DNA of 64,000 nt from an uncultured bacterium (GCA_963702025.1 OY969699.1:1408001-1472000), one strand, 5' to 3'; shown: positions 12,553-42,312, numbered from the stretch's first letter. The notes: generated by a model from the sequence alone, not told the origin. A program made the numbers and translations.

Positions 12553-12828
12553 TTAAAAATATGGCGGGCCCCATGCCAGATAATCAAATCCGGTATCATG
12601 ACCTTTTTTTTCATGTGTCATGCAGTGATGGGCACAATATTCATCAAGTATTTTTTGCGCATGAATCTTTACATCAATATCTTGTTTAAAATATTCTATC
12701 AATCGCATCCGGATCGCAAAACCGGCGAACTCATATAGAGAATCATGCGCTACAAATCGCATCATACCTTTCCATAAATCTGCAGGCAATAATTGCAAAT
12801 AATTATCAAATGGAAGGATTAATTTATC
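12553..12828 (-). pseudogene. Leaderless F-box-like gene fragment
   Basis: DNYLQLLPADLWKGMMRF resembles SYLQLLPKDLWRETM of 24862..25623; no leader or RBS-ATG. Confidence 0.5.
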
Positions 12829-12830
12829 TT

Positions 12831-13529
12831 TTAACTTTTTTTTAACAATGCGTTAAACTCGGCAACAACTTTTGCATGATGTTCTTTATCTGCTGCAAAA
12901 TCATAAGAAAACGTAGAGGCAATCTCGCTCCCGGAATATTTTGGAGTAAATGGAGGACGGTAGCCTCTGGTTATCATTATATCGGACGCCCCTTCTTCAT
13001 CCTTTGCAGTTTCACTCTTATGTTTTTGATATGCTTCACGTAGCGGCGCATTATAAATCTTATCTTCTTCGGTTTCAAAACCTGAAAATAAAAGCTCAAC
13101 TTTTTTGTTATTTACCAAGCAGTGAACTTTACCGGTTGGGATATAGCTGAGCAAGCGATGCACCTGATCTTTTTTTGTCATCATAACTAAACATGCACCG
13201 CTATCAATGGTGCCATTCTTTATTTTTTCAAGTAGCTCATGAAATGGCTTTTGATCGAGATCACGAGCTTTTGATGCTTGCACGCAGAGTTGGATAAAAA
13301 ATGGCTGTTGCACCCGCGCAAGCTTTACCGTATCATCTGCTTGCTCGGTTTCTGCCAGCGGGCTAAGATAATGGTCATAGATTTCTTTGACCCTGCCGCC
13401 TCGGCCATCGCTTACCCACACATCGCCATTATCTTCGATGATGCATTTGAAATAGGGGCGGCCTTCCATTGCTTGCATGCTTATAATACTAAAACACGCT
13501 AATGCGATTATATTTTTTATGTAATTCAT
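12831..13529 (-). CDS. Secreted protein, unknown family X
   Basis: Leader ...SMQA|MEG; FIQLCVQASK, HRLLSYIPTG and YDFAADKEHHAK shared with paralogs. Confidence 0.8.
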   Translation of the reverse strand: MNYIKNIIALACFSIISMQAMEGRPYFKCIIEDNGDVWVSDGRGGRVKEIYDHYLSPLAETEQADDTVKLARVQQPFFIQLCVQASKARDLDQKPFHELLEKIKNGTIDSGACLVMMTKKDQVHRLLSYIPTGKVHCLVNNKKVELLFSGFETEEDKIYNAPLREAYQKHKSETAKDEEGASDIMITRGYRPPFTPKYSGSEIASTFSYDFAADKEHHAKVVAEFNALLKKS

Positions 13530-13556
13530 GAGATCCTCAATAATTAATGATATGAT

Positions 13557-14321
13557 CTATTTTCCAACTTCACGCAACTCTTGTTTCCATGCTTGTTTTT
13601 TTTGTTCTAGTTTTGCTGCTTCTTGCAGTGCAGCCTCTTTGTCTTGTTGATATTTTTTTAAAACAAATTTGCAACCCGGTGCAAAAAAGGGCAATACATT
13701 GCATCTTAAAATTACCGGTAGAGAGACTGATCGCTTTATATGTGTAAACATAAGCTCGGCTACGCCCTCATCTTTTATTGCTTGCATCTGATTAAAGATG
13801 CCAAAGTCGGGCTCCGCTACAAGAGAGCGATGAGAAAATGGATACTCGTCTGGATCAGCAAAAGTTATTGCCATTGCCCCTTCCCGGCTATAAAGCCCAA
13901 AAAAAACTTTCAAGAAACCAATATTCTTGTGCGCCAGAGCCTTATCAAAAAATGATACTTTTGTATTAATAGCGAATAAGGTGAACTGACTTGCTGGTGG
14001 CTTTGTCCAGTAATAATCTTCGTCCCTGTAGTAAGTTTGTTTATATTTAATTTCATTTCTAACCTCATATCTATCACTCGCGGAATCTTTATTTGCGCAT
14101 AATAGAGCACGAAGATAGAGGCTATCTTTTTTTCTTTCAAAATTTTCAGCAAGCTTTTCTAATTGCTCAGTTCTGCACTTGTAGTCACATCCTTGTTTTT
14201 CGAATTCTTGTAAAAATTTACGATGGTCTTCTTGCGAACACGGTTCAATTTTCTCTTCCATTGCACATAGGCTTATAATGCTAAAACAAGCTAACGCAAT
14301 TATTTTTTTGGTAATATTCAT
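13557..14321 (-). CDS. Secreted hypothetical protein
   Basis: Leader MNITKKIIALACFSIISLCA|MEE, nearly identical to the neighbour's leader. Confidence 0.75.
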   Translation of the reverse strand: MNITKKIIALACFSIISLCAMEEKIEPCSQEDHRKFLQEFEKQGCDYKCRTEQLEKLAENFERKKDSLYLRALLCANKDSASDRYEVRNEIKYKQTYYRDEDYYWTKPPASQFTLFAINTKVSFFDKALAHKNIGFLKVFFGLYSREGAMAITFADPDEYPFSHRSLVAEPDFGIFNQMQAIKDEGVAELMFTHIKRSVSLPVILRCNVLPFFAPGCKFVLKKYQQDKEAALQEAAKLEQKKQAWKQELREVGK

Positions 14322-14330
14322 GAGATCCTT

Positions 14331-15050
14331 TTATGGCAATTTGTTTTGGAACAGCCCATTAAATTCAGCAACAATTTTTGCGTGATGTTCTTTATCTGCT
14401 GCAAAATCATAATTTGAGCTCAAGCGATCTTCACCGGTTAATTCCGTTTCTTTTCCTCTTCTGGCTTTTTGAGCAGCCAAAAATTCATAACATGGAAAGC
14501 CAGCCGGATCTAAAGGAAAATCTTCTTCCACTTTAGGCGCAACTGTTCTCACGATAGATTTATCTGGCTTATCAACCAATCGCATGCCAAGAATAATAGT
14601 CATTCTAATTTTTTTGTCGTTTACCAATTGCTTATTCACTTCTTTTCCCGAAGGAATATAACTGAGCAATCGATGTTCAGCATCTTTGTGGGTCACGGCA
14701 ATAGTTTCTTGTTCAGCCTCAATCTTGCCGCTTCGAACTCTATCCAACAATTCATGAAAGGGTATTGTATCGAGCTGCTTTATTTTTGAAGCTTGCACCA
14801 CTAGTTGAATAAATAATGCCTGTGGAATATTAAAATGTTGTTTGATATCATCTGCATTTTTAGTTTTATCCAGTGAATAAAAAAAGTTCGGATACGTTTC
14901 CTTTATCATGCCGCCGTGCTCATCTTTTATCCACACATCACCATTGCTGTCTTCTTCACTAAATACTCTATAATTATAAGCGCGCCCATCCTCCATTGCA
15001 GATGTAGCATTTGATAACAGTAGTACAGTTAGTAAGGCTTTTTTTAACAT
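14331..15050 (-). CDS. Secreted protein, unknown family X
   Basis: Leader ...ATSA|MED; FIQLVVQASK, HRLLSYIPSG, YDFAADKEHHAK. Confidence 0.8.
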   Translation of the reverse strand: MLKKALLTVLLLSNATSAMEDGRAYNYRVFSEEDSNGDVWIKDEHGGMIKETYPNFFYSLDKTKNADDIKQHFNIPQALFIQLVVQASKIKQLDTIPFHELLDRVRSGKIEAEQETIAVTHKDAEHRLLSYIPSGKEVNKQLVNDKKIRMTIILGMRLVDKPDKSIVRTVAPKVEEDFPLDPAGFPCYEFLAAQKARRGKETELTGEDRLSSNYDFAADKEHHAKIVAEFNGLFQNKLP

Positions 15051-15062
15051 AAGATTCCTTTA

Positions 15063-15179
15063 TTATTGAATATCACAAGACCATGAAGACCGTATTAACT
15101 GGGTAGCTTTAATCGGGTTCTGCTGCATGAAATAGACTGCATTCGATGTAAGTATTATTATAAAGGCTTTTTTTAACAT
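15063..15179 (-). pseudogene. Leader-only mini ORF (38 aa)
   Basis: MLKKAFIIILTSNAVYF|MQQNPIKATQLIRSSWSCDIQ*; TAATG-coupled to the upstream gene; leader resembles that of 14331..15050. Confidence 0.6.
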
Positions 15180-17485: not shown

Positions 17486-17496
17486 GTGATAGTTTT

Positions 17497-18721: not shown

Positions 18722-19288
18722 CTATTTTCCAAGCAATTTACTAAATTCTTTTTCAATCTTTTCACGATGATCCATCTCTGAATCAAAATCATCTTCATTA
18801 TTGGCAACTATCGTTATCTTAAGTGGCGCGCCTACGCGCTTTCCTTGATGCGCCTGGATCCCCGCATTAGCAAACTGATTATTCAACAAAACCTCATGAA
18901 AAACCATGCCGCATTCTTGATCAACGTTGCCGTTCCAAGGAATATATTTGAGCAAAGTATGAAAAGCGGCTGAATAGTTAGTTTTAATGAGCGGGCCATT
19001 AAAGCTGTCTTCTTGCCGATTAATATCATGCGCTAAATCTGCAAAGGATGCCGCAGTAAAATTTTTATCTTGTGCCGCTTGCACAAAAAGATGAAAAAAT
19101 AATCGTTTTTTTGTCCGAATTGTAATGACGTCCGCGTGCTCTGCGGTAAAGCATTGAACCACAGCAGGAGATGTTGCAAGAGATTTGTTGTACCTATTGT
19201 TGAGATTTTCTTTCTCTTGCGGGCACTCCATCGCATATCCGTTTATTGTTATAAGCGCTAACAGTGAATTTGCAATTATTATTTTCAT
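18722..19288 (-). CDS. Secreted protein, unknown family X (IPW subtype)
   Basis: Leader ...NGYA|MEC; LFFHLFVQA, FHTLLKYIPWNGNVD. Confidence 0.8.
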   Translation of the reverse strand: MKIIIANSLLALITINGYAMECPQEKENLNNRYNKSLATSPAVVQCFTAEHADVITIRTKKRLFFHLFVQAAQDKNFTAASFADLAHDINRQEDSFNGPLIKTNYSAAFHTLLKYIPWNGNVDQECGMVFHEVLLNNQFANAGIQAHQGKRVGAPLKITIVANNEDDFDSEMDHREKIEKEFSKLLGK

Positions 19289-19293
19289 GATTA

Positions 19294-20019
19294 TTAATGC
19301 GCCAGCTCAAAAAAGAGATGATCCCGCGTTGCTTTTTCGTCAAGATTGGCGACCTGCACAGCAGGTTTAAGTTTTGTATAATCCAGGCCATGCACAATTA
19401 CTTTAGTTCCTTGTTTATTAAAATCGATAGTAGAAATATTGCCGAAAAAGTGCGGTATCGTGAATGTTTGCGGTATTTCAAATTTGTCCGGTTGTAGGCC
19501 CGGCTTGCGCAGTTTTTGCACCGCAAGCACCGTTTTCCAATCAAGGCGTTCAATGCCCCCTTGGGGGAATACCATTTCATGTTTCAGTGTTGCTAAAAGT
19601 ACCCCATCATAAGAAAGAGCAATGTGGCGCACATCCGTCAAAGATTCGAAATGTGTAATATCCTCAAGGCCCTGATTGATTTGGGCAATTTTTTCAGACA
19701 ATGCATAGCGTTGTTTCAGATCATACACGGCAAGAATTGCAGAAACGGAAGTAAAGCCTTTTTTTCCATCAAAAGTGTTATGTTTCCTCTCTAAAGTAAG
19801 CATCGTAGAAGAATCCCGCCAATATGTATCGATCATATCTATAGCAAGACAAGGAGAATCTGAGCTGTCTGATTCATGTTGCAAGAATTTTTCTCTTGTC
19901 CGCTCGACACATTCGGCATCCGTTTCTGAATCAATGGTATCTAATGGGCTTGGCGATTGTTGCATAGTGTAGGTACAGTTTGCGAATAATAGCGTAATTG
20001 CAATGATGATGTTTTTCAT
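19294..20019 (-). CDS. Secreted protein with beta-propeller-like blades
   Basis: Leader ...CTYT|MQQ; IALSYDG and IDFNKQGTKVIVHG shared with 21504..22298. Confidence 0.7.
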   Translation of the reverse strand: MKNIIIAITLLFANCTYTMQQSPSPLDTIDSETDAECVERTREKFLQHESDSSDSPCLAIDMIDTYWRDSSTMLTLERKHNTFDGKKGFTSVSAILAVYDLKQRYALSEKIAQINQGLEDITHFESLTDVRHIALSYDGVLLATLKHEMVFPQGGIERLDWKTVLAVQKLRKPGLQPDKFEIPQTFTIPHFFGNISTIDFNKQGTKVIVHGLDYTKLKPAVQVANLDEKATRDHLFFELAH

Positions 20020-20047
20020 GGAATATCCTTCTTTAATGATGATTTTT

Positions 20048-20860
20048 TTATTTCTTTATCAACTCATAAAACTCTTTAAGAATCATATTATGATGTTCGG
20101 CATCAGCTTCAAAAAAATAATCCGCTAATAGTCGTTGCCCTGAATATTGATAATATTCATATTCACCCTTAATTTCTTGGCCCCACTTCCATTCTTGTGG
20201 TGGCAATTTTTCTCGAGCAACTTTAATTTTTAGATTTTCTATTGTATCCTCATCAGTTTCATATGGTCGTAGAACAAACCGCACTTTTTTTCCATTAATT
20301 AATGACTTGGTATGTCCGGTTGGAACACATGCAAGTAAGCGATGGCATAAATCTTTTTTGGTAATGCCAACCTTATTGGTATGCACCTTAACATTATCAT
20401 ATATGCCTAATCCTTCACCATCACGTATTGCAATCTTGTTGTATGTTATAATTTCATTAGCACCTATCTTTACAAAATTATCTTTTTTTATTTTGGCCAA
20501 AAGCTCTTGAAAAGCGGCTAAGCGAGCGCCAACCGCTTTTGATGCCTGCACACATAATTGCATGAAAAGTGATGATCTCACCAATGAATATTGGCCCACA
20601 TCATCATAGAATGCCGTTTTTTCTAAATCACAAAAATAATGATCAAAAACCTCTGCTTTTTCTAACAGAGGATTCTCAGAGCCTTGTTGGGGAGTTTCAT
20701 TTTTTTCTGTGGTAATAAAAAGATCACCTGAATTGATAATAACCTTAAAATCACCCATTTGAACCAAATGAGCATATGGTTGTTCGGGTGCTGGTTTTTC
20801 TTCCATTCCGAGCGCTACCGCATTCATCATTAATAAAACCGACAACATGATTTTATTCAT
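20048..20860 (-). CDS. Secreted protein, unknown family X
   Basis: Leader ...VALG|MEE; LFMQLCVQASK, HRLLACVPTG, FEADAEHH. Confidence 0.8.
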   Translation of the reverse strand: MNKIMLSVLLMMNAVALGMEEKPAPEQPYAHLVQMGDFKVIINSGDLFITTEKNETPQQGSENPLLEKAEVFDHYFCDLEKTAFYDDVGQYSLVRSSLFMQLCVQASKAVGARLAAFQELLAKIKKDNFVKIGANEIITYNKIAIRDGEGLGIYDNVKVHTNKVGITKKDLCHRLLACVPTGHTKSLINGKKVRFVLRPYETDEDTIENLKIKVAREKLPPQEWKWGQEIKGEYEYYQYSGQRLLADYFFEADAEHHNMILKEFYELIKK

Positions 20861-21492
20861 TTTGAGTTCCTTTCAAGTTTACGGCAAAGTTTTTCAAATT
20901 CATCACAGATTTTTTCGTGTTCTTGATCCTCATAAAAATTATGTCCGGAAAACATTTCTATAATTTTCACCGGTTTTATACATTTTGATTGCCATTTTAA
21001 AAAAGCCAACCCTATTTTTGTTTCATTAATGAGTGTATTGTAACAGTTGATCGTATTATCACCAATGCCATCCCACGGGATGCGAGACAATAGTTTATAA
21101 AATTCGTTCGGCTCTTCAATGCCGATCCAATCATTATTGTGATTTAAAGATTTTTCTAAATCACTTTGTAAGCCAAGCAACAAAGATGGATCATATTCCC
21201 ATTGAGTAGGGAAAGTTTCTCTCTCTCTTATTTTGCACGCTTGCACCACTAAATGTATAAATAATGGTCTTTGAGTTGTAACAATATTCGTATCACCAAA
21301 TATTTTTTTTAAATGGGGAGCGTCGGCCAAAACTTTGTTATAGGCACGTAGATGAGAAGGCATATTGGAAATATTGCGTGCAGCCGCGTTATAATGTGCT
21401 ACAAAATTAACTTTTGGTTTAGGCGCTATCATTGCTTGAATGGGAATGCACAATGCCGCTAAATTCAGCGCTACAATAATCTTTTTCTTCAT
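20857..21492 (-). CDS. Secreted protein, unknown family X (IPW subtype)
   Basis: Leader ...PIQA|MIA; LFIHLVVQA, FYKLLSRIPWDG. Confidence 0.8.
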   Translation of the reverse strand: MKKKIIVALNLAALCIPIQAMIAPKPKVNFVAHYNAAARNISNMPSHLRAYNKVLADAPHLKKIFGDTNIVTTQRPLFIHLVVQACKIRERETFPTQWEYDPSLLLGLQSDLEKSLNHNNDWIGIEEPNEFYKLLSRIPWDGIGDNTINCYNTLINETKIGLAFLKWQSKCIKPVKIIEMFSGHNFYEDQEHEKICDEFEKLCRKLERNSK

Positions 21493-21503: not shown

Positions 21504-22298
21504 TTATTTTTGCAAACTATTTGCAAGCTTTTTGCAAACGCCGCGTTGTTTAAAATAATCATCCAAAGTTTGTTTGCTTTTTTTAGCTTGAGCTTTACGC
21601 TCTTCTTTGTTCATCAGGTTCCACAGAAAATAAGTAGGTTCTTCTTTTTCAAAGCAAACGCCATGAGTAATAATTTTGGTGCCTTGCTTATTAAAATCAA
21701 GAAAAACGATATTTTTCAAAAGCATCGGAATAGGAAAATCTCTTTTAGTGTTGGTAGGAATATGAATCACCGTGATTTGCGCGCTATTTGGAGGAGCAGT
21801 AGCTCCTTGACATGCTATCGTTCTTTGGCCCAATCGCCCGAACCATTGGCCATCCGATGAAATGGCAACATCGATAGTTTGATAATAATATTTATCAGCA
21901 TCAATTACTGTGGCCACAGTATCAAGAGAGATGCGCTCTGAATCTTCTTTGGGCACCGTATCCCAAGCAATCACTCTTGATACCGTGGAATCACTTTGAT
22001 CAAGATAAACCTTCTTCAAATTATCAGGAGAATAAGCAGAAAAACAGGTAGAAATGCGCCCTTGTGACCGCCTATATTGTTGCGCGTCTCTATGATAATC
22101 ACTGACATTATGGCTTTTAATTTCTGTGCGGCGAATAAAATCAGCTTTTGATTCTCTCTTTCTGTTCGGCAAATAACTTGCAATAATATTCTGCGCATCT
22201 TTGGGCAGCATGGCTAAATAACAAATGCCCTGCTCACGTTGCATTGCTTGCAAAAAGCTGCAAAAAAGTAACGGCGCTACAATACTACGTAATTTCAT
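21504..22298 (-). CDS. Secreted F-box-like plus propeller-like protein
   Basis: Leader ...FLQA|MQR; YLAMLPKDAQNIIASYL; AYSPDN, AISSDG and LDFNKQG blades. Confidence 0.7.
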   Translation of the reverse strand: MKLRSIVAPLLFCSFLQAMQREQGICYLAMLPKDAQNIIASYLPNRKRESKADFIRRTEIKSHNVSDYHRDAQQYRRSQGRISTCFSAYSPDNLKKVYLDQSDSTVSRVIAWDTVPKEDSERISLDTVATVIDADKYYYQTIDVAISSDGQWFGRLGQRTIACQGATAPPNSAQITVIHIPTNTKRDFPIPMLLKNIVFLDFNKQGTKIITHGVCFEKEEPTYFLWNLMNKEERKAQAKKSKQTLDDYFKQRGVCKKLANSLQK

Positions 22299-22856
22299 TT
22301 AGGGACACCACATATCATTATTCCTTTGCTTCTCTTGATTGTAATTTCTCCTCTTGTTAAGAAATCTAATCAAAAGAGGATCGGCCCCACTCTGCTCAAC
22401 GTTCTCCCTCCATGATGAATCACTACAAAATCCAACAATAAGATCATCAGCGCAGGCGCTAATAATTGAGCTATTAAGCACTATGAGCGTATACTCAGCT
22501 TCGCTTTTTATAAATCCATTTAAAAACTTTTCAACCAGGTATTGGTTCGTGGCTTTGAAATGCAATGATACCGGCGTGATATGAAATAGACTATTTTCAT
22601 AAGAAATGTTGCAAGCTTCTTTGAGCAGTGGCATGGCTGCCCATTTGTTTATTTTGCGATAGCTTTCCCCGTAACGTTCACAAAGCTTATCATCGATTGC
22701 TTTTGCCAAAAGCTTTCGCTGCTTGGGCAATTTTTTCTCAATGTGATCGGCGATTGTTTTGACACACAACGATGCAAGCGATGGAATCCCGCTGCGGCTG
22801 GCCAGAAAATGAGTAAGGGAAAATGTAAAAAGTATGAGCGCTAAAAGTTTTTTCAT
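22299..22856 (-). CDS. Secreted protein with BC-box-like motif
   Basis: Leader ...HFLA|SRS; IPSLASLCVKTI; ends WCP; paralog of 34845..35465. Confidence 0.7.
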   Translation of the reverse strand: MKKLLALILFTFSLTHFLASRSGIPSLASLCVKTIADHIEKKLPKQRKLLAKAIDDKLCERYGESYRKINKWAAMPLLKEACNISYENSLFHITPVSLHFKATNQYLVEKFLNGFIKSEAEYTLIVLNSSIISACADDLIVGFCSDSSWRENVEQSGADPLLIRFLNKRRNYNQEKQRNNDMWCP

Positions 22857-24422: not shown

Positions 24423-24884
24423 ATGCGAATAACAATCCGCCCTTTTACATCCGCCGATACTCCGGCACTGATACAATTATTTAAAGAGGCGGTTAACGCA
24501 ATAAATATTCGCCATTATTCGCCCGAACAAATAGCGGTCTGGACAAATATTGATGCCGATCGCTTTCAAAAAAAATTAGAAAAAAATATTGCTTTCATCG
24601 CTGAAATCGATTCAAGAATTGTTGGCTTTGCTGATATAACGCACGAAGGGTATCTTGATCGCCTGTATGTGCACAAAGATTACCAAGCCCGTTGGGTTGC
24701 CCTTTCCCTTTTTAAAGCGATAGAAAAAGCGGCACGCGAGCTTGGCCTTACTAAAATTACTACCGATTGCAGTATTACCGCCAAAGTGCCGGCAGAGAGA
24801 ATGGGCTTTGTGACAATCAAAGAACAAACCGTGATGCGCCATGGGGTGCCGCTTGTTAATTATGTTATGGAAAAGAAGTTATAG
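24423..24884 (+). CDS. GNAT acetyltransferase (YafP-like)
   Basis: HYSPEQIAVW, GYLDRLYVHKDYQ, SITAK; close paralog at 42537. Confidence 0.9.
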   Translation: MRITIRPFTSADTPALIQLFKEAVNAINIRHYSPEQIAVWTNIDADRFQKKLEKNIAFIAEIDSRIVGFADITHEGYLDRLYVHKDYQARWVALSLFKAIEKAARELGLTKITTDCSITAKVPAERMGFVTIKEQTVMRHGVPLVNYVMEKKL

Positions 24885-25623
24885 TTTTTTACTTTCCCTC
24901 ATTGCGCTACAGCATTTGCTCTGCTTTGCATGCCAAACACCATTACCCTCATATCTTCAATTGTTGCCAAAAGATCTATGGCGCGAGACCATGAATTGCA
25001 CTCTCTCAACCGCACCATTATGGCAGGATAAAGAGGAAGATAATAGAGTTGAGCAGGCTCTCCGCTTTAATGCCCTTGCAAAAGAACTGTGCAACTTAAA
25101 TTTGCAGCATATGATCATTTCCCGCATGCAAGCCGATCTTTCGCATGCAAAAAAAAAGATTCTGGAGCCTTACTATCCGGATTATAATTTTAAATTAAAT
25201 CGCTTTGATGATTTTTTTAATTATGGCGCATCAAGAAAAAAACCGGAAAAAGATCCTCTTTCTCCCGACAACCCCAAAAATTTTATCAACATTTTACCAC
25301 TAAAAAATATTCTCTCGTATTATGAAAGTGATAAAGAATGGGTAAAGATTTTTTTGATGACAAAGAACTGCGGCGGCACCTTACGCAAGCATATTTTTCT
25401 GTGCGCGATGACGCATCGCAATGAAGAACTTGTTAATCTTCTCTGGAACAACAACTATCGAAAAAAATTACTGTTATCTAAAATGTGGAAACGTCCCTTT
25501 ATTCGCATGGCAAGCTGTGTTGCGTATAAGGCCGGCTATGCAGGAATTCACGCAGAGTTTAAACAAATGGAAGACAAAATAAAGGCTAAAATTAAGGCAT
25601 CGCAAGTATGGTATCCGGGGTAG
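24862..25623 (+). CDS. Secreted F-box-like hypothetical protein
   Basis: Hydrophobic leader ...LCFA|CQT then SYLQLLPKDLWRETM; start uncertain. Confidence 0.6.
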   Translation: MLWKRSYSFLLSLIALQHLLCFACQTPLPSYLQLLPKDLWRETMNCTLSTAPLWQDKEEDNRVEQALRFNALAKELCNLNLQHMIISRMQADLSHAKKKILEPYYPDYNFKLNRFDDFFNYGASRKKPEKDPLSPDNPKNFINILPLKNILSYYESDKEWVKIFLMTKNCGGTLRKHIFLCAMTHRNEELVNLLWNNNYRKKLLLSKMWKRPFIRMASCVAYKAGYAGIHAEFKQMEDKIKAKIKASQVWYPG

Positions 25624-30200: not shown

Positions 30201-33200
30201 CACTATTATTTCAATCATCATGGACGGGGATGTGATTGGGGAGCAAAAGGCAATGTAATATTTACACAATCATGTACCACCCAAGCGGGTGATACTATTA
30301 CCATGAATCTTGGCAACTTCGTAATCACCGGCACTATGAATGCTGCCGGAAAAATATCTATCCAAGCAAATACCGGATTGTTTGCGAATAATAACAGTTC
30401 CCGTCAAACGCAGATTCCTACGCAACCGGTGGTTGTTGATGTCACGCACTATATGCAAGATCAGGCACGAAGGCCCGGCATGTATCGCCTTGGTAATAAC
30501 AATGCAGTCGAAACAGAGTTCCCACTTGGCGCTGCATCTGCTCCGCAAGACGGGGATCGGGTATTGCTTGAAAATCCTGGCCGCGCTGCACCATTAGCAT
30601 GGGCAGATATTTTTAATCCATTGAACTCAGTCAATCTTGATTTGCATTTGCAGCAATTATTGGCGAATCTTGCGGGTAAAGTATATGCAGGAAAAGCAAA
30701 AGGTAATAATCTAGCAACTATTCTTTGGGCCAATGCCAATAAGTGGCGCCAACAACATGGTAAAGATGTGATGTCCCCGGCAGACATGAAAAACCTTAAC
30801 ACCTCTATGCTCCTGTGCCAGATTTTGAATAATGGTTTATCTGAACAACAACAAATATTACTCTGTATTGCGCCCGCCGATATCAATCCCTATCAAGATC
30901 GGGGAGATATCGTTGCTGATGCGGTTGAATGTATCACCGAAGGTGATCAAACGCATTTGAATAATCGTATTGTGGCGCAAGGGCCCGATGGGATTACACT
31001 CACATCAAAAGCGGGCAATGTACACTTAGAAACTCAAAAGTATACCACTGTCAGTGAAACAGATGCAGGCACGATCACCCAGCAACACGCAATGCCACAA
31101 CAGCAATTAATCGCACAATCGGGTCCTGTTGCCGTGACTGCTCATGGAAATATTTCTCGCACCGGCACCGTGATAGCGGCAGCAGGCGATGTTGATGAAC
31201 ATGCCCAAACCGGTTCAGTTATTAAAAATCCATTGGTATTGCAAACAACCGTTGAAAAGCACCATAAAGAAAGGGGATTATTTTCAACTACAGAATCAAC
31301 TCAAACGAGCGTAACGCATCATGTAGTGCCTTCAACAACAATCTCAGGAGCAAAACTCCATGATAAAGCAGCAGTGTCAATTAACGCCGTTGCACCGCAA
31401 GATTCTGCTACGCAAAAGATCATTTATGAATCGCCAAACACCATTATCGAGGGCTTGATTCTGGCCAACCGCACCACCAGTCAATCCAACACCAGTAGTG
31501 GCTTCTCAGAACAATCCTCTTTTGAAAGCAAAGAAACGCCACACACAACCCCTGCGAATATACAAGCCAAAGTAGTAGAGTTAGTGGGAAAAAATGCACG
31601 CGTAAATGCAAACATTAATGCAAAAGAACTGCGCGATGAAACGGAGCATGGCGCGCAATTTGTTGCAAAAGTTGCCCAAATGCTGTGCTCAGGTCAATCA
31701 CTAGCTTCGAGCCCATTCATGAGCGTAGATGCCGGTTATAATGCCGGCTATGAAACCATGATTCCTACCATGCTCATGGTAGAAAAAATTGTGCGAACCA
31801 AAGAAACCGGGCACATGGTTTTTGAATCGGCACTCATCGATAAAAATCGCACTGAAATTATTGGTAAATTTGTTGAAACTACTTACCAGCTCAAGCAATG
31901 GCAAACCAGTTGGAATCATACATCACAATTGATCCCCGATGAAGCGTTGATAGTTGTTGCATTAGCCATTACCTTAGCAACGCAAGGCGCCGGCGTAGAA
32001 CTTTTAGCTCCGTTGCTTACCAATATTACTGCCGCAACCGGCATGCAATTAAGCGCAGCAGGGATTGCGATGGTGAATGCCGGTATTTCAACTGTTTGCA
32101 GTAGTGCTGCAACTTCATTCTTGAGAACCGGCGATCCGATTAATACCGTTGCCCAACTCGCATCTCCTGCGCAACTTAAATCAGTAGCATTCAGTATGGC
32201 ATCAGCCGGATTATGTTCTCAACTAGGTGATATGCTGAACGTGAATATGAAACCTGAATTGAAATCTTTGGTGAGCCATGTCAAAGAACAGGCACTGCGC
32301 GGCACTGTCGATGCATTGCTGAATGTTGCAATCAATGATGCACCGGTTGATAAAGCGCTGGGCGATGCATGCAAACAAATTCCATTAAAAGCGGTTGCTG
32401 CTTATGCGGCAAATAAAATTTGTACCGCGTATATGAATACCATCTCTCAAAAAGCAGCACAAACAGTCGTGGGCGGCTTGAGTGGTTTTGCGATGGATAA
32501 TTCTTCAAGAGGCTTTGTTTCTGGTGCAGTTGGCGCATTAACAGCCGAAACTATTGGAGATTTACTCATAGCTGATGCAAAAGAAATTTCTATTATTGCT
32601 GCGCTCCGGCTAAAAGCTGCAGGAAAACCACTGAGCATAGAAAATATGCAACAAGCAATCCAAGAAGAAGTGCGCTATAAAATGAATTTTGCCAAAATTG
32701 CAGCTTCCGGCATTGCGGCGCTTGCAAAACAAAATCCTTCAATTGCGCTATCAACCGCAAGCAATGCGCTTGATAATGATGTCGCTATCCGAGGCTCATT
32801 GTATGCAATGGCAGAATTCCAATCAATGCTCTCAGCGGCAAGTCAGGCAGTTGTTACTTTGGGGATACCTGATGAGGTAATGGAATCACAATTAGCAGAG
32901 TCCAGCGCAGCAGCTTCACCTAATGAGCAAACGGGTGCATCTGAAGAAGGAGATCAAAGACCGTTTGTTGAACATCCTAATAGGGGTTTGTGGTATAAAG
33001 CTTGTATTTCAGGCGATCTTATATTAACAGAAGGACGTGGGAAATATCTTTATTTAGGTCTACGTTCTGTCTGGCATAAGCATCCTAAATGCCCGTTTAA
33101 TGTAATGGGCCATGGGAGTTCTTCAGCGGTGGAAGTGGACACAAAAGAAATTCATTCGCATGGATTAGATAGAACGAATTCAAATATCTTAGAAGCTGAG

Positions 33201-33509
33201 GGACGCGTAAGCCTGAATGCTACTGAACTTGCAAAACTGATTAGAACTGCGCCTAACTATGAAGAAGGGCAACATATCAATTTGTTTTCATGTGAATGTG
33301 GAGCTGACCCAGATGGAATAGCTCAGCAGTTGTCTGATGAAATGAAGACTCCAGTATCTGCCTTCACTGGATTAGCCGCGACTTTCGGGTTAGTATTTGC
33401 TTCAGTATCATTTGATAAGGGGTTCCCTGAATTAAAAGATATTAAAACCTTTTATCCGCAAGAGAAGCCTCTAACCAATATTCCAGACTTACGTTTCCCG
33501 ATGAATTAG
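27201..33509 (+). CDS. Giant haemagglutinin/CdiA-like exoprotein with C-terminal clan CD peptidase-like domain
   Basis: Leader ...NAFT|MEQ; many NxG beta-helix repeats; Ala/Gly helical region ending TASNALDND; C-terminal MGHG...LFSCECG...AQQLS. Confidence 0.75.
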   Translation: MLKKSVFASLSYLSFLIFHNAFTMEQDRHSYHLSIKKIQNSPDQLTIKISKNAQKCSLVANFAAHTCDNEQNLFAPFKTAAGLKNATFGDAANPDCFLWNIPEFGLLKLQRDGSMFFGHGQNDVPLAHDELTFNTPGTLFLESLKVAALKIKSEKAQLCQAVVADQVHADHSVQNSGCLKTKRLVGPGEFLNEGLLELEGTRQKPAILGIKKFQNKNKLPLLAAKVQSSHLRVTGDNQCFSNGDGALFDVSDSLWVEKLQSGIASLFCNKGSLTTGQFDLCRQATNEGFLQAHTMTAKEQQFDNKEFGQVKILDAMYVDSSIVNEGELNAQRIINVNNGVNKGTITGSPDLSLDVRHTLDNYGQVKISSLSGEGVFKNHRNLFFNNVYPTTIQTLINQTLAHDKKAKIEGRGLYIQGGIFLNEVDSDICLNGNLSFTSRQPWLGIVSPVAKLACNKGNIKVQSLHLFEEYGLENSGNVEIKDLRLEQKTPLNNLQGGSVEINGSMSIDKTAIKNAGELTTHGNVNLTAAHVENKGTMICKQGNLSYTDAKLDNAGNVLMDGVKSSDILDVTNSGMLALKDSALNFGELKNEKDLVLHSGVYAVNALTRNKRLQLLDQDWVITDDPKHQAPHRLLCMNSPEKKSWGASFAEEIECQRNLRYDLEVWPGNVRSQADVCLSSRYIRDIDQLKALQTPGKVTAWCGPINLIEEEEKESESNFLWGFNFAALRRCFSHYDFSNIGHLALNVFGPFTTHYSFQAPTLSMHVLGPLVLGKDNEHLGTLAATHGPLTVQAHSIDGRFGKFYGNGKTLLESYKEDITVGAPTRGIDENIKQQFINAYPRPGGFWNKFVDNFLASFDYTLNQPNGAYAASDNHLTLRSAKNIFVKYGTVISALGNHLIAQNEVQNLSGKISSQGGTTFEADTYNHTREGAATKSWTSQHDYYQYPGSGPAVLESLKKIDFLVKKVNNRAGSIRCGEDIGVNGSKTLAQATEYVEEPQHFYHYYFNHHGRGCDWGAKGNVIFTQSCTTQAGDTITMNLGNFVITGTMNAAGKISIQANTGLFANNNSSRQTQIPTQPVVVDVTHYMQDQARRPGMYRLGNNNAVETEFPLGAASAPQDGDRVLLENPGRAAPLAWADIFNPLNSVNLDLHLQQLLANLAGKVYAGKAKGNNLATILWANANKWRQQHGKDVMSPADMKNLNTSMLLCQILNNGLSEQQQILLCIAPADINPYQDRGDIVADAVECITEGDQTHLNNRIVAQGPDGITLTSKAGNVHLETQKYTTVSETDAGTITQQHAMPQQQLIAQSGPVAVTAHGNISRTGTVIAAAGDVDEHAQTGSVIKNPLVLQTTVEKHHKERGLFSTTESTQTSVTHHVVPSTTISGAKLHDKAAVSINAVAPQDSATQKIIYESPNTIIEGLILANRTTSQSNTSSGFSEQSSFESKETPHTTPANIQAKVVELVGKNARVNANINAKELRDETEHGAQFVAKVAQMLCSGQSLASSPFMSVDAGYNAGYETMIPTMLMVEKIVRTKETGHMVFESALIDKNRTEIIGKFVETTYQLKQWQTSWNHTSQLIPDEALIVVALAITLATQGAGVELLAPLLTNITAATGMQLSAAGIAMVNAGISTVCSSAATSFLRTGDPINTVAQLASPAQLKSVAFSMASAGLCSQLGDMLNVNMKPELKSLVSHVKEQALRGTVDALLNVAINDAPVDKALGDACKQIPLKAVAAYAANKICTAYMNTISQKAAQTVVGGLSGFAMDNSSRGFVSGAVGALTAETIGDLLIADAKEISIIAALRLKAAGKPLSIENMQQAIQEEVRYKMNFAKIAASGIAALAKQNPSIALSTASNALDNDVAIRGSLYAMAEFQSMLSAASQAVVTLGIPDEVMESQLAESSAAASPNEQTGASEEGDQRPFVEHPNRGLWYKACISGDLILTEGRGKYLYLGLRSVWHKHPKCPFNVMGHGSSSAVEVDTKEIHSHGLDRTNSNILEAEGRVSLNATELAKLIRTAPNYEEGQHINLFSCECGADPDGIAQQLSDEMKTPVSAFTGLAATFGLVFASVSFDKGFPELKDIKTFYPQEKPLTNIPDLRFPMN

Positions 33510-34844: not shown

Positions 34845-35465
34845 TTACGGACACCAGCTATCATCATATCGATATCGTTTTTCAGATGCTTTTTCTTTGG
34901 CTTCTCGAGCCTCACGATTCTTCTTGGATGAAAAAAGTTGCATTCCTACCGGAATATCCTTTACCCCAGTTGTTGTAAGGAGAACATGATCCCAAGAAGC
35001 ATGGTAATGCATATAAATATCCATACAGCGCTTAACAACTGAACTTTTAGTATAAAGCTGCTCGATTTCTTTGTGTCTATCCTGTCCTTGATATTTTAAT
35101 TTCTCATTTAATTTTTCATTAAGTTCTACGGGCAGCTTTTTAACCTGTATTAATATCGGCGTAATACGGAGCTGCTCATTTTCCTGAGTAATGGTTGCAA
35201 TTTTATTGAGGGTGGTTATCGCGGTAAAAAGATCAAGTTGCTTTTCCAGCGGAGCATTCACCATATCAGTATATTTATTAAGGCTTTCATGAGGAAATTG
35301 GGCATCAATTTTTTGAGCCAGAAGATCGCACTGCTGATTGCGCACGGATGCAATTTCTCTGATTATTTTCTCGAGACACAATGAAACGAGGGGAGGGATA
35401 TATCTTGAATTTTGCATTGGATAAATGTTTGAAACAAAAAATAAAGGAAGTAGTAAGTATTTCAT
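34845..35465 (-). CDS. Secreted protein with BC-box-like motif
   Basis: Leader ...NIYP|MQN; IPPLVSLCLEKI; ends WCP. Confidence 0.7.
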   Translation of the reverse strand: MKYLLLPLFFVSNIYPMQNSRYIPPLVSLCLEKIIREIASVRNQQCDLLAQKIDAQFPHESLNKYTDMVNAPLEKQLDLFTAITTLNKIATITQENEQLRITPILIQVKKLPVELNEKLNEKLKYQGQDRHKEIEQLYTKSSVVKRCMDIYMHYHASWDHVLLTTTGVKDIPVGMQLFSSKKNREAREAKEKASEKRYRYDDSWCP

Positions 35466-37651: not shown

Positions 37652-37653
37652 AA

Positions 37654-38487
37654 CTATTTATCGTCATTTTCTAATTTAGATGTATCAAATCCCCATTTTG
37701 CGCACAAGCCATGTAATGCAAGCATAGCGCTCGAATAGCCTTTACAGCTATAGATCGCTCTCAAATCTGTTTCTAATTTATCATTGCCATGCGCCATTTC
37801 TGCAAAAAAATCAGGGCCTTTTAATAGATTCATCTGATATCTATGAGTGTTATACATATGATCTTGAATTCTGGCAACTTCATCGGCAGTCAAAAGGGGA
37901 TTAAGTGAAGGCTTTTTTTGAGCCGCTTCAAGAAGCGTTTTGAATGCTTCAACTATTTTTGAATCAACATCATAATCAGCAGTGCCGTATACATTAACTA
38001 TCACCGGCCTTTCAAGATTTTTTGTTTGCTCTGTTCTAATAAAACCTACGTTTGCAAATTTATCATTTAATAATGTTTGATGCCACGCAATTCCCTGTTC
38101 TTTATCCACGTTGCCATTCCAAGGAATGAATTGTAAGAGTTTATGAAAGGATGCTGATTGCTGTGTCAAGACATCGCAAGCATAGCGATGCGATTTGCTC
38201 GCACGATCTTCTTCGTTATCGATATCTTCCATCACTTTGCAAAAATCCGTTGGTTTAAAATTGGTATCATGGGCAGCTTGTGTGCACAAATGAGAAAAAA
38301 GTCCCCTTTGTATTGCTATAAGAGTATTTGATTGCGGGGATATATCTTTAAAGCAATCGATCACATCTGGCGAAGATATAAGAGGCTTATTGTAGGCAGC
38401 CAAAAGATTTTCTTTTGGGGCTTCCATAGCCTGGAGGCTAAATATGCTAAAACATGCTAATGCCATTGTACTTTTAATAAGTTTCAT
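37654..38487 (-). CDS. Secreted protein, unknown family X (IPW subtype) with C-terminal extension
   Basis: GAGG RBS; leader ...SLQA|MEA; LFSHLCTQA, FHKLLQFIPWNGNVD. Confidence 0.8.
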   Translation of the reverse strand: MKLIKSTMALACFSIFSLQAMEAPKENLLAAYNKPLISSPDVIDCFKDISPQSNTLIAIQRGLFSHLCTQAAHDTNFKPTDFCKVMEDIDNEEDRASKSHRYACDVLTQQSASFHKLLQFIPWNGNVDKEQGIAWHQTLLNDKFANVGFIRTEQTKNLERPVIVNVYGTADYDVDSKIVEAFKTLLEAAQKKPSLNPLLTADEVARIQDHMYNTHRYQMNLLKGPDFFAEMAHGNDKLETDLRAIYSCKGYSSAMLALHGLCAKWGFDTSKLENDDK

Positions 38488-38596: not shown

Positions 38597-39958
38597 CTAT
38601 TTTGATTCATCTTCTTTCAAGTAATTCTCAGCTAATTCTTTCCAATTAATCGCCTTTGGCTGTCTTTTTTGCGCTTTGTGCAATTCAACTTCACGGCGAA
38701 GATCTTCAAATTGTTGTATGCGGGCTTCGAAAAGAGGGTGTGTACTTTTAAATGTTTCTTTCTTCGGAGCTTCCAGCAAGTACTCCTCTGCACTCATTGT
38801 CCCTCTGTTTCCCCAGGCTATTGCATCATCGATAGGAATGCCAAATTCTATAATCGCAAATCTATCTGCTTCTAATTCTTGGGTTCTGCTATATGCATGC
38901 TCAAAGCTTTCTTTAAATGGTAGATGCTCACTAGTTTTTTTCTCTTTTTTAAATTCTTCAATTGCAGCCTTTTGCAAAACTGAATGGGTTAAAGTCTGAG
39001 GCTCAAATAAGTGGCCTAATGCAAAATGTCCCAATTCATGCGCTATAACAAAGCGAAGCTCACCAATAGGTTGTTTTGTTGTGCTAGCGCCTATCCTAAT
39101 AAGCGGTAAACCATCTTTGGGTGAAGAATAAACTAATGCGATATCATCTATATAATTTCTTTTAATGTGATCAGATCCGGTTGGATCGACTGCTAGTATT
39201 GCTTCATATAATGAGGACGCAAAGGATTTAATTACCTCCAATATTTGCATGCGCTCGCTTTCGGTAATAGCAGGTGTTTTGGCTACCGTATCATTATATT
39301 GCCTAAGATACCCTGATAGACTTTCTTTTTGCGCTTCTTGGTCATAATATTTTATCCCCGGATCAAATATAATAACCGGATATCCATAAATTTCATCACT
39401 CCCCTGAATCCCTGCTGCTTTCGGATCCACTGCCATTTCCAGGCATGGCTTGCCATTTGCTGCTTCGCATTTTCTAAGTGTTTCATATCCTTGAGGATTA
39501 ATGTGCTGAATAATCTTCATCCAATATTCGTATTCATCTTTGGGGAATGAATAATCTTCTTTCTGCGCATATTTTTCAGATATAAAATCAAGACCTGGCT
39601 TAAAGGCCAAGTATTTGGCAGCCATTAAGAATGCAAAGTTATCTTTAATCGGAATCTCTTGCTCTGCCTTCTTAAGAAATTGTTTTTCATTGAGATTTTT
39701 ATGTTGATAAAGCAGTTGCATTAATTGTGCAATTTCTGCCAGTACTTCCCCTGAAATACTAAGATACGCACTCCCATAGTCTCGGAGGATGTTTGCAAAG
39801 ACCTCTGATTTTTGTGCAATTTCAAAAGGAACTTTAAATTCTTTTTTATCAGAGCTTATCAGCGTCACCATGGCTGGAGCTTGCGGTGGCAGCTCCATGG
39901 CATTGAGCATGGCGCTCAAACCCAATACGATAAATATGATTGATAGTTGTAGCTTCAT
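38597..39958 (-). CDS. Secreted Skp1/BTB-like domain fused to M48-like metallopeptidase
   Basis: Leader ...MLNA|MEL; VTLISSDKKEFKV...FLMAAKYL; HELGH, QELEADRFA, STHP..RI. Confidence 0.85.
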   Translation of the reverse strand: MKLQLSIIFIVLGLSAMLNAMELPPQAPAMVTLISSDKKEFKVPFEIAQKSEVFANILRDYGSAYLSISGEVLAEIAQLMQLLYQHKNLNEKQFLKKAEQEIPIKDNFAFLMAAKYLAFKPGLDFISEKYAQKEDYSFPKDEYEYWMKIIQHINPQGYETLRKCEAANGKPCLEMAVDPKAAGIQGSDEIYGYPVIIFDPGIKYYDQEAQKESLSGYLRQYNDTVAKTPAITESERMQILEVIKSFASSLYEAILAVDPTGSDHIKRNYIDDIALVYSSPKDGLPLIRIGASTTKQPIGELRFVIAHELGHFALGHLFEPQTLTHSVLQKAAIEEFKKEKKTSEHLPFKESFEHAYSRTQELEADRFAIIEFGIPIDDAIAWGNRGTMSAEEYLLEAPKKETFKSTHPLFEARIQQFEDLRREVELHKAQKRQPKAINWKELAENYLKEDESK

Positions 39959-41305
39959 TAATTACCGCTTTCTTTATTCTTCAACATTTCTTCTAATTCA
40001 TTATGTAAATAGGTCGGCAAAAGATTTTTTGCTCTTTCAAGAGTTATTTTGCCCTCTTTCACCCACTGTGCCACGTTTTTTACTGATTTGAATTCTGCTT
40101 GCGCTATATCTGATGTTTCGAGCAGTTCTTGTTTAGTTTCAAGATTTAACGCTTCCACTCTCGCTATATGCTTCTTTTCTTCCGGCATCATCGGCCTTTT
40201 TTCGATTCTAAACCCAAGCTCATTAAGCTTAGCTTTTTCAACGTCTAAAAAAGATCGCGTTTTCATTTTTCTTATCTCACCAGATTCTGTTTTTGTGAGC
40301 CCCTTTGTTAATATTTTTTCAATCTCCGCAAATTCTTTTATCGCATTATCCATAAAAACAGACTTTTTATCTTGGTTTAAGCGCTTGGCTTTCTCGCTTA
40401 ATTCTTTTGTCCAATCAAGCATGGTTTTACCATTTTTGTCCGTGATGCTCATAATACTGCCATGCCCTTTAATCACTTCTACACTCTCATCCATATGTGT
40501 TCCCTCCGGCAACCAATTAACATAGGTCTTGAGTAAATAGTATAGGTGACGACCGCCATCATATTTTGCCAACGCGAAAGCCTCTTCGACTGCGATTACG
40601 TAGGCAGCGATATGGAGGGCCACATGTGCTTCTTGTGGGGTATATCTTTTACCATGGATTGTACTTTTGTATGTACCTTCTCTTTCTTCTGCAATAAATG
40701 GGCCATAGTTTTTATAGCGCTTTGAAAGATTATTAAATCTAATCTGTGGCCCCTTAAGATTTTCAAGCACGTTATATATTCCATATTCTACTATTGTCAG
40801 TTCCTGGATAGCCTCTTTCAGTTCATAGGTAGCCGTTTGCCGCTCATAGATAGCCATTATCCGTTCATAGGTACCCGTTTTCAGTTCATCGGTATCATAC
40901 GGAGGCGTTCCTTCTGCCAACATCATCCCTATCGCATCCAGATCATACCGAAAGCTAAGCTCAAGCTCTCCCTCAATAATGCGCGGTGGCATCCCTTCAT
41001 TATTAAGTTTATTTTTAAAATCAGGATCAGCAGCAATAGCATTCTCAACAAAGGTTTTTATCGCCTGGAGTTGCCCAGTAAGATCTTTTATCTCTTTAAC
41101 TAATGCGTTCAGAGTATTTGTATCCTTTTCAGGGTTAATTCTGATACTTTTGTCTCTAATTTCCCTTACATTTTTGGTCAAATGTTGCACCATATCAGTC
41201 AAGTTTTTTATTCACATCTTTATTTCCACCAACAGGCAGCTCCATGGCATTGAGCAGGGTGCTCATGCTCAGGATGGCGAGAACAATGTTTTTTGACAGA
41301 TTCAT
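39958..41305 (-). pseudogene. Secreted helical protein split by a frameshift in an A6 run
   Basis: AAGGA RBS and leader MNLSKNIVLAILSMSTLLNA|MELP at 41305; frame break at 41204-41209; 414-aa body continues to 39958. Confidence 0.75.
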
Positions 41306-41319
41306 AGGACTTCCTTTAT

Positions 41320-42312
41320 TTATTGCAAACTTTTTAACATTTCTTCTAATTGTTTCTGTAAATCAGCGGGAAGTTTTTTCTTCGCTTGTTCAAGCGTGAT
41401 TTGACCGCTTTTAATTTGCTGTGCAACTGCTTTCAATGATTGCTGGCGCAACGAGGGAGCTTGCACATACTTTGCTAGTAATTCGATTATTGGTTGATAT
41501 TTTTCAGATTCAGTAGGGTGCGCTTTTATTATTTCTTCTAAACTTTCTATTAATGTTTTGTCTGAAAGAAGACCTATTTTTGGATTAGGGTTAGCGCCCG
41601 CCTCAAGCAGCATTTTAATAATTGGATAATTTTTTGCCTCTACTGCTTTTTCTAAAATAGTATAATACCTTCCGTGTGAACTATATGCATACGTATTAAG
41701 ATCTGCCCCGGCTTCTAGCAGCTTTTTGAATAGCACTGGATCATTATTTTCTAAAGCTGCATTAAGAGGGCTCGAAGAACCATACCGTTCTGAAATCATA
41801 TAACTAGGATTAGGAGTAAAGCCTATATCAAGAAACAACATAAGCATCTCTCGAGATCCGGGATTTCGAAGATCCTGTATGAATGACTTAAAAATTTGTT
41901 CGAGATCAATAGATAGTTTTGGATGTGATTTAAACCACTGTTGTGCTTGCGCGGTAGAAAACCATCGTTTTGCACCCGGAGTTTTTAACGCAAGTGCTAC
42001 TGTAATACGATCTCCATTAGTCCATTTAGTAGCAAGATCGGTAATAAGGTTATTAGTAATACTTGCATCATTAATCAGCTGATTGAATTGTTTGTCAACA
42101 AGTGTTAATGCTCTGATTGTTTGAATTGCAGTTCCTAATGAATCAGAATTTGTTATGTCATTAGTAATTTGAGCTTGTAACTCTGTAGGCAATCCCGATA
42201 AAGATAATAGTGATGGTTCAATAGTGCGTGGTTTCTCCATAGAAAAAATAGATGCATTTTTGGTAAGAGATAGTATAACGAGAAGCATTATGGTGTATTT
42301 GACGGCATTCAT
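41320..42312 (-). CDS. Secreted F-box-like plus ankyrin protein with C-terminal SOCS/BC-box-like tail
   Basis: Leader ...SIFS|MEK; LSGLPTELQAQI; SPLNAAL..KLLEAGAD; APSLRQQSLKAV...LPADLQKQL. Confidence 0.82.
   Translation of the reverse strand: MNAVKYTIMLLVILSLTKNASIFSMEKPRTIEPSLLSLSGLPTELQAQITNDITNSDSLGTAIQTIRALTLVDKQFNQLINDASITNNLITDLATKWTNGDRITVALALKTPGAKRWFSTAQAQQWFKSHPKLSIDLEQIFKSFIQDLRNPGSREMLMLFLDIGFTPNPSYMISERYGSSSPLNAALENNDPVLFKKLLEAGADLNTYAYSSHGRYYTILEKAVEAKNYPIIKMLLEAGANPNPKIGLLSDKTLIESLEEIIKAHPTESEKYQPIIELLAKYVQAPSLRQQSLKAVAQQIKSGQITLEQAKKKLPADLQKQLEEMLKSLQ

Follow-up and report, generated by a model that had tools for sequence, protein, structure and literature searches.

Candidate mimics of cullin-RING substrate receptor parts on leader-bearing proteins of an uncultured Babelota bacterium

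Introduction

Hijacking of Elongin BC ubiquitin ligases has been described for viruses, and bacterial mimicry of F-box proteins is well described. Here we analyse a window of 64,000 nucleotides of DNA from an uncultured bacterium (GCA_963702025.1 OY969699.1:1408001-1472000), in which the span 12553..42312 encodes proteins that join a signal-peptide-like leader to motifs resembling the docking parts of eukaryotic cullin-RING ligases (CRLs). Our preferred reading, which we consider probable, is that leader-bearing proteins with such eukaryote-type parts would serve as fake substrate receptors inside a protist host. What we document for this reading are the modules themselves, their shuffling between genes, their restriction to leader proteins and the homology of an adaptor-fold domain.

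The closest described counterparts are the eukaryotic VHL-box (CRL2) and SOCS-box (CRL5) receptors, such as ASB9, KLHDC10 and pVHL. Like the module described here, they have a BC pattern followed 8-23 residues on by an LP-led cullin box, three predicted helices, and ankyrin, WD40 or leucine-rich-repeat (LRR) regions joined at either end. Unlike these receptors, the module here is bacterial, sits on signal-peptide proteins, usually has A, S or T in place of the BC cysteine, nearly lacks the Cul5-type LPΦP, and falls below the Pfam cut-off in almost all copies. In the accessible text of PMC3355856, the viral Elongin BC hijackers human immunodeficiency virus (HIV) Vif, adenovirus E4orf6 and Epstein-Barr virus (EBV) BZLF1 carry parasite-encoded BC boxes, as is proposed here, and E4orf6 has a BC box without a standard cullin box, much like two paralogs of the window (22299..22856 and 34845..35465). 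The viral hijackers are single proteins per virus for which binding was measured, whereas about 25 module copies occur in the one genome studied here, described at the level of sequence.

F-box effectors of intracellular parasites (Legionella AnkB and those of Amoebophilus; PMC7542358, accessible part) and the poxvirus ankyrin/F-box proteins combine an F-box-like helix with ankyrin or WD40-like regions, as do proteins here. Unlike those effectors, the window copies lie below profile thresholds, carry a Sec-type leader and include a double-box protein at 41320..42312. For Babela massiliensis, the main text notes one F-box and does not contain the words 'SOCS' or 'BTB' (PMC4378268). A SOCS-like box in bacteria has precedent, because SOCS-box annotations in Endozoicomonas (PMC9743535, accessible part) and an ESM Atlas cluster of SOCS boxes that is mostly bacterial also represent SOCS-box-like sequence in bacteria. 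The Endozoicomonas case concerns a Pfam domain in animal symbionts that is interpreted through immune signalling, and the accessible text describes no expansion, shuffling or Cul2-type box (PMC9743535). Finally, Skp1, Elongin C and the BTB adaptors of Cul3 share one fold family, and BTB proteins have the single-chain layout of adaptor plus receptor that is also seen here. Unlike BTB and Skp1, the domain here is Elongin C/Skp1-like in sequence, lacks the F-box-binding tail of Skp1 and, in the protein at 38597..39958, is fused to an M48 peptidase domain.

In the literature searched, the Babela and TM6 supplements aside, we found Babelota described neither with BC, VHL or SOCS boxes nor with Elongin C-like domains, and 'SOCS' and 'Elongin' are absent from the main text of two reviews on bacterial ubiquitin mimicry. 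Bacterial F-box mimicry is known; an expanded bacterial module of the putative Elongin C/Cul2 type was not found in this literature, which was mostly without subscription papers.

Results and discussion

A candidate VHL-type box on leader proteins

The source genome, labelled G000, is a single contig of 1.60 Mb that is 95% complete, and our heuristic detects a signal-like N-terminus, the leader, on 769 of its 1557 called open reading frames (ORFs). Within the window, a 330-amino-acid (aa) leader protein at 41320..42312 (minus strand; ORF call, Pfam Ank and motifs) comprises an F-box-like N-terminal region, ankyrin repeats and a C-terminal BC box plus Cul2-box-like module. An iterated profile built from non-window copies gave 22 matches at E<2e-8, which include the held-out tail of this protein (residues 284-328; 41329..41463, minus strand) at E 1.8e-8, and the best reversed-proteome decoy reached 0.62. 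The patterns given in the accessible text of PMC3355856 are (S,T,P)Lxxx(C,S,A)xxxΦ for the BC box, ΦPxxΦxxxΦ at 8-23 residues later for the Cul2 box, and LPΦP for the Cul5 box. The 41320 tail fits the first two, with the BC box SLRQQSLKAV (41425-41454, minus strand) and, after a 17-residue spacer inside the 8-23 range, the Cul2-box-like LPADLQKQL (41347-41373, minus strand). In a single-sequence AlphaFold2 model, the tail forms helices at residues 286-301, 307-313 and 316-329, with pLDDT of 76-83 from residue 291 (52.7 for the whole model); SOCS boxes are described with three helices (PMC3779351, accessible part).

The module is not confined to this protein. A search for a BC-like plus LP pattern in the N- and C-terminal segments of 747 leader proteins yielded six N-terminal and six C-terminal segments, with 0.1 expected in each case; one thioredoxin-like regex match was omitted from the seed of the iterated profile. 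We then used a wider alignment of 40 rows (A6), picked with a similar pattern, whose profile finds 24 proteins below 1e-5 in G000, 23 of them with the leader. The module is about 40 residues long and is partnered with ankyrin, WD40-like, LRR and orphan domains, the partners being of the folds common in substrate receptors. Because the 24 carriers form 13 clusters after box and leader are masked, and because one orphan family with an FxxLxVQASK-like core has the C-terminal module in three of nine members and lacks it in six, we conclude that the module moves between genes. The six box-less paralogs of that family are encoded in the window (12831..15050, 18722..21492 and 37654..38487), and the three box carriers lie elsewhere (L011).

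Among the A6 rows, the BC box is found in 24 of 40, the Cul2 box in 35 and both at 8-23 spacing in 23, counts that are partly circular because the rows were chosen with a similar pattern. A genome-wide pattern test is less circular, since it does not depend on the pattern-picked rows of A6: BC plus Cul2 at 8-23 spacing occurs in 23 of 769 leader proteins (3.75 after shuffling, maximum 7) and in 9 of 788 non-leader proteins (5.55 after shuffling, maximum 10). The BC leucine is invariant (40/40), and the residue that follows the BC helix turn is A in 11 rows, S in 9, T in 9, C in 6, V in 3 and G in 2. The Cul5-type LPΦP is present in two of the 40 rows, and the 41320 tail is not one of them. The original prediction had described this tail as SOCS-like; the held-out profile match confirms the tail beyond chance, and its cullin box fits the Cul2 (VHL) type rather than the Cul5 type (35 versus 2 of 40 aligned copies); a Cul5-type SOCS box was rejected on the same counts.

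Comparison with solved structures and domain libraries leads in the same direction. With a profile of G000 copies alone, the top PDB match is the SOCS box of ASB9 (E 0.032, covering positions 2-40 of 42), and Pfam SOCS_box has one copy over its cut-off in a six-frame search (24.5 versus 23.5). Across 201 genomes, six have a SOCS_box match at E<=0.01, G000 alone exceeds the cut-off and stops interrupt the match in three of the five others; since SOCS_box passes its cut-off in 1 of 201 genomes, Pfam is too blunt a tool here. Pfam Elongin_A has no match in the genome. Among ESM Atlas neighbours of the 41320 tail, SOCS-box clusters rank first and third (0.82 and 0.79), a level that shuffled proteins reach one third of the time. 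The A6 module also has a full-length match (E 0.18) to residues 317-351 of PDB 3goz_A, the C-terminus of a solved leucine-rich-repeat protein. We take 3goz_A to be Legionella LegL7, which gives a lead to a box in another amoeba parasite. Each of these lines is weak alone, and jointly they point to a divergent VHL-type box.

We think it unlikely that the module is instead a truncated PRANC or F-box that binds Skp1, with LPxEL as the first F-box helix, a merely BC-like helix ahead of it and Cul1 as the single scaffold. LPx[DE]L does open both kinds of box, one tail is weakly similar to PRANC (E 0.0054), ankyrin proteins with C-terminal F-box-like helices are common in the genome, and 41320 has paralogs with a BC-like helix in place of its F-box helix. 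However, it is the BC leucine that is invariant in the module, several copies stop within about 10 residues of LPxEL and leave no space for further F-box helices, no PRANC match in the genome exceeds the cut-off, and PDB searches with the module profiles gave no F-box protein.

The putative VHL-type module extends beyond this genome. A6 matches at least 25 of 251 Babelota genomes (E<=0.001), that is, at least 24 of 250 others, in at least 4 of 21 families; 11 of the 24 other matching genomes contributed rows to A6 and 13 contributed none, and all of these counts are lower bounds. G000 has at least 26 matches and the next highest genome at least 6. Among 1.84 billion proteins there were 48 matches, of which 19 belong to the source genome, 8 are repeat artefacts and 21 are others that mostly carry Babelota-type leaders, as judged by eye. 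Two named complete genomes, that of Vermiphilus pyriformis included, have weak matches, which suggests that an infection model may exist. Separately, a protein of 417 aa without a Babelota-type leader (P0164) has about three tandem BC-box-like repeats followed by one LP helix.

It is hardly credible that these motifs are a chance resemblance amplified by gene duplication. The motifs are short, some copies are recent paralogs and the regexes were tuned by eye, but the module sits on 13 unrelated backbones, is matched in 13 genomes without rows in the profile and is restricted to leader proteins. The chance reading is largely refuted for the tail module and for the adaptor-fold domain described below, and may hold for the F-box-like motifs of 24862..25623 and 12553..12828.

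An Elongin C/Skp1-like domain fused to a putative peptidase

The second line of evidence is a 453-aa leader protein at 38597..39958 (minus strand), in which an Elongin C/Skp1-like domain (39575-39877; Pfam Skp1_POZ, 28.8 bits, cut-off 21.9) is fused to a zinc peptidase domain of the M48 family (38705-39061), predicted from its motif (HELGH at residue 307) and from Pfam (Peptidase_M48, 36 bits, cut-off 20.3) and missed by the earlier reader. A profile of eight adaptor-fold domains (A5) was searched against the PDB; the best 60 of 76 matches comprise 51 Elongin C/Skp1 rows, nine weak topoisomerase rows and no BTB, with a best E of 5.6e-9, and hhalign gives a probability of 98.0 for Elongin C and of 94.4 for one Skp1. 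By these comparisons, the 38597 domain is homologous to Elongin C/Skp1 over its full length and is closer to them than to BTB. The protein is not among the genome's two matches to Pfam BTB (PF00651), and a classical BTB domain was rejected because the best 60 PDB matches include no BTB row and 38597 has no Pfam BTB match. Of the Skp1/BTB-like assignment made originally, the Skp1 side therefore stands, in the form of an Elongin C/Skp1-like domain, and the BTB side does not. PF01466, which represents the C-terminal F-box-binding helices of Skp1, has no match in 38597 and is present in a control Skp1 (L117).

The genome has about ten related domains, several of them ahead of LRR or WD40-like regions, and the adaptor-fold domain matches 30 of 251 genomes with up to 17 in one. 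Among 5.8 billion proteins, homologs of the 38597 domain were near-identical copies alone, and a degenerate DNA pattern found no Skp1 or Elongin C in viral contigs. Three single chains join a box to an adaptor-fold or BTB-like domain (L168, L037 and L008:2158-3288), two of them with WD40-type regions.

These domains bear on a further alternative, in which the modules do engage Elongin C or Skp1, yet their chief effect, as sinks or inhibitors, is to disable host ligases and not to redirect them; under this reading the bacterium's own boxes may be additional partners of the adaptor-fold domains. We regard this as rather unlikely. It would account for several carriers that are very small (94-111 aa) or have no cullin box, for the proteins that hold a box together with an adaptor-fold or BTB domain, and for the loss of a loop in the window's adaptor-fold copy. 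Against it, repeat or orphan domains are attached to most carriers, and a cullin-box-like helix is kept in 35 of 40 copies.

Other box-like motifs of the window

All of the motifs listed in the original prediction are present at their genes, with 24862..25623 on the plus strand and the others on the minus strand. Two of these genes are paralogs of each other (E 2e-11). The 185-aa leader protein at 22299..22856 has a BC-box-like motif (22752-22787) and no cullin box, and is found at E 0.0075 by the held-out profile and 0.001 by a non-G000 profile. The 206-aa leader protein at 34845..35465 has a BC-box-like motif (35364-35399) and, 76 residues on, a Cul2-box-like LPVELNEKL (35109-35135), assigned from patterns and alignment. 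Both match the published BC-box pattern. P[STP]LxxLC at residues 16-60, a pattern written after the sequences were seen, occurs in 6 of 769 leader proteins (0.28 after shuffling) and in 0 of 788 non-leader proteins. Homologs of the pair are found in two of 250 other genomes, eight of them in G206. In an alignment of 22299, 34845 and seven of these eight homologs (about 25% identity), the BC pattern is present in 7 of 9 rows (5 of 7 homologs) and a Cul2-box-like helix in 5 of 9; the four rows with both have them 63-76 residues apart (76 in 34845 and 63-66 in three homologs), outside the 8-23 range. A model of 34845 (pLDDT 72.8) has a 31-residue helix opening at the BC motif and a shorter helix at the LP motif. 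A PDB search with the 34845 family gave no SOCS protein, and its homologs among 5.8 billion proteins were near-identical copies alone. The claim that both carry BC boxes is supported by the pattern in five of seven distant homologs, but they are the weaker cases because the cullin box is absent or 63-76 residues away; they would at most behave as BC-box proteins and do not qualify as standard VHL or SOCS boxes.

The F-box evidence is weaker than that for the module. Genome-wide, [YF]xxxLPx[DE] occurs 19 times in leader proteins against 1.15 after shuffling, and two loci elsewhere pass Pfam F-box models once in-frame neighbours are added. In the 23 window proteins scanned, Pfam F-box (PF00646/PF12937), SOCS (PF07525) and PRANC have no match at E<=1; a genome-derived F-box profile, which mixed unrelated seeds, misses the window copies (E 0.57, 7.9 and 11, and nothing for 21504), and no profile recognises a full domain of about 45 residues in them. 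The most plausible case is 41320, whose F-box-like region (residues 36-88; 42049..42207, minus strand) contains an LPTEL helix and a later LTLVDKQF segment resembling the third F-box helix. The two-part regex behind this assignment, our own, is found in four of 769 leader proteins including 41320, against 0.13 after shuffling, and 41320 is homologous to a locus elsewhere that passes the Pfam F-box-like cut-off. Pfam F-box has no match in 41320 itself, and the pLDDT of this region is below 50. We describe 41320..42312 as a candidate double-box protein, with a plausible F-box-like start and a VHL-box-like tail in one chain. Its paralogs, L015 (G000 1337414..1339101) among them, have a BC-box-like helix where 41320 has its F-box-like first helix, hinting that one box can replace the other.

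The remaining three of the four F-boxes claimed originally are reduced to a first helix or less. The 264-aa leader protein at 21504..22298 (minus strand) has a helix-1-like motif (22167-22220) followed by a partial WD40-like beta region with weak WD40 matches. Its family is present in 9 of 250 other genomes, and helix 1 (LPx[ED]ΦxxxΦxxxΦ) is seen in 12 of 14 aligned homologs; Pfam F-box has no match in 16 family members, and a PDB search with the family gave no F-box protein. The 253-aa leader protein at 24862..25623 (plus strand) has the helix-1-like motif only (24952-25005), which belongs to the enriched regex class and is without profile support. The gene at 12553..12828 (minus strand; motif at 12751-12804) is a leaderless remnant with a stop upstream and a profile E of 11. 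The motifs had been placed directly after the leader, which is correct for P[STP]LxxLC in 22299 and 34845 and does not apply to this leaderless gene. Elsewhere in the genome, ankyrin proteins in tandem arrays (L158, L152, L163 and L165) end in YLxLLPxDL helices, a poxvirus-like ankyrin/F-box layout below the PRANC cut-off.

The LPx[DE] helices might also be unrelated to cullins, serving as ubiquitin-binding (UBM-like) motifs or as a helical cap or sorting tag of a generic kind, which we judge quite improbable. A DNA polymerase iota fragment is weakly matched in the PDB by the module profile and by the F-box profile, and ranks ahead of FBXW7 in the latter. We take this fragment to be a UBM. Amphipathic LPxxL helices are, in addition, common. 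However, Pfam UBM gives one genome match (E 0.07), the polymerase iota match spans the LP half alone, and both the BC half and the separate Elongin C/Skp1-fold domains would be left unexplained.

Organism and export

Where a group is named, relatives of the ATP synthase gamma subunit are mostly labelled Babeliales, Dependentiae or TM6 (59 loci), and by this sequence evidence the genome is that of a Babelota (Dependentiae/TM6) bacterium. Near-identical DNA is found in peat, permafrost and soil metagenomes (20 runs, 6 with at least half of the words). Described Babelota are intracellular parasites of amoebae and flagellates (PMC6561590, PMC4776705 and PMC4378268, accessible parts), and this bacterium is likely a parasite inside protists.

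The leader, described originally as shared, does not mark out the set: it is carried by 769 of 1557 ORFs and by 18 of 28 genes of the 12553..42312 span, and a special leader was rejected in favour of a generic signal-like peptide. Since about half of the ORFs have it and the leader share reported for Chromulinavorax is 44% in the accessible source, it appears to be the ordinary export signal of the phylum. An AME-like motif is present in 278 of 769 leader proteins against 40 of 788 non-leader proteins. The genome has two secretins over the Pfam cut-off, which makes Sec plus type II secretion the likely export route. A dedicated cluster in the 30-kb span was rejected, most module copies lying elsewhere in the genome.

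Proposed mechanism

In the mechanism that we propose, Sec export followed by type II secretion would deliver the proteins to the host cytosol. There, host Elongin C would be the docking site of the BC helix and a Cul2-like cullin the contact of the LPxxL helix; F-boxes would bind Skp1-Cul1. In the manner of BTB proteins, the Elongin C/Skp1-like domains would attach to a cullin directly, so that adaptor and receptor would be one chain, and the attached domain would pick the host protein for ubiquitylation. Copies without a cullin box, or with a box and little else, might soak up adaptors. The original prediction held that more than one cullin scaffold is targeted; at the scale of the genome, what stands is that more than one class of cullin-RING part is apparently mimicked.

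Several observations weigh against this mechanism, in addition to the circularity of the pattern counts. At the level of the module, the BC pattern taken by itself shows hardly any enrichment (173 versus 141), the BC-box cysteine is kept in 6 of 40 copies and the strict BC pattern in 24 of 40. With the A6 profile, the ASB9 SOCS box drops to E 0.36 and the sixth PDB row, a weak match, and a whole-protein scan with Pfam SOCS_box gave one match in 33 proteins, at 20.5 and below the cut-off. No eukaryotic SOCS-like protein was seen by eye among the 48 matches in 1.84 billion proteins, and the F-box profiles gave no clear F-box in the PDB, with FBXW7 at E 1.7 behind the polymerase iota fragment. 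RNA run X19 holds short pieces only, the longest of 193 nt, with no sign of expression. Compared with Elongin C, the 38597 copy is missing nine residues of a loop that we believe to take part in contacting the cullin. In related strains its reading frame is interrupted by a 22-nt tandem duplication, seen in three of three DNA runs and in L071. The 73-aa product of this frameshifted allele is on five contigs; the window's open frame could reflect a minority allele or the collapse of a repeat, and therefore the 38597 copy, though not the family, may be decaying. On the host side, Cul2/Cul5-Elongin complexes have been argued to be animal-specific, with unexamined protists noted (PMC2785787, accessible part). 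CRL2 receptor clades have also been placed in amoebozoans and in stramenopile, alveolate and rhizarian (SAR) lineages (PMC10591846, accessible part).

We tentatively propose, as a possibility we would not put at even odds, that in Babelota the Elongin C/Cul2 box is a plug-in cassette on dozens of secreted proteins, accompanied by the bacteria's own Elongin C/Skp1-fold adaptors fused to receptors or a protease, so that the kit would span both the adaptor and the receptor layer of several cullin ligases. If true, a bacterium would for the first time be seen to hijack Elongin BC ligases on a large scale, and the cassette would mark which protist hosts run Cul2-type ligases. More broadly, a module missed by Pfam may provide a lead to the function of dozens of orphan secreted proteins in the phylum, whose secreted proteins are mostly orphans, its 45-residue peptide is a small testable unit, and the question bears on protist use of Cul2-type ligases and on the hosts of uncultured parasites.

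Further features of the window

Next to 41320, a gene at 39958..41270 (minus strand; 5' limit approximate), absent from the earlier reader's list, has its leader and body in different frames and has at its end a degenerate version of the 41320 tail (39976-40116; E 7.6e-8) without the BC-box start; two runs differ from the window by a short indel at the frame break. Strains vary in this region: the window and the runs disagree in indels at 39777 and 41203-41204, and a contig of one run, from a related strain, skips 41256-42354 and hence lacks the 41320 gene.

Among the other genes, 27201..33509 (plus strand) encodes a 2102-aa leader protein with DUF637 (possible hemagglutinin) and a variable-looking C-terminus, a layout that may resemble that of polymorphic toxins. 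The leader protein at 1498..2871 (plus strand) has charged repeats of about 111-120 nt and a C-terminal DnaJ-like segment with SPD for the usual HPD, and a 409-aa ORF at 6784..8013 (minus strand) resembles an insertion-sequence transposase, both as judged by eye. Between two leader genes, 11625..11766 contains a 51-nt inverted repeat that is 76% complementary.

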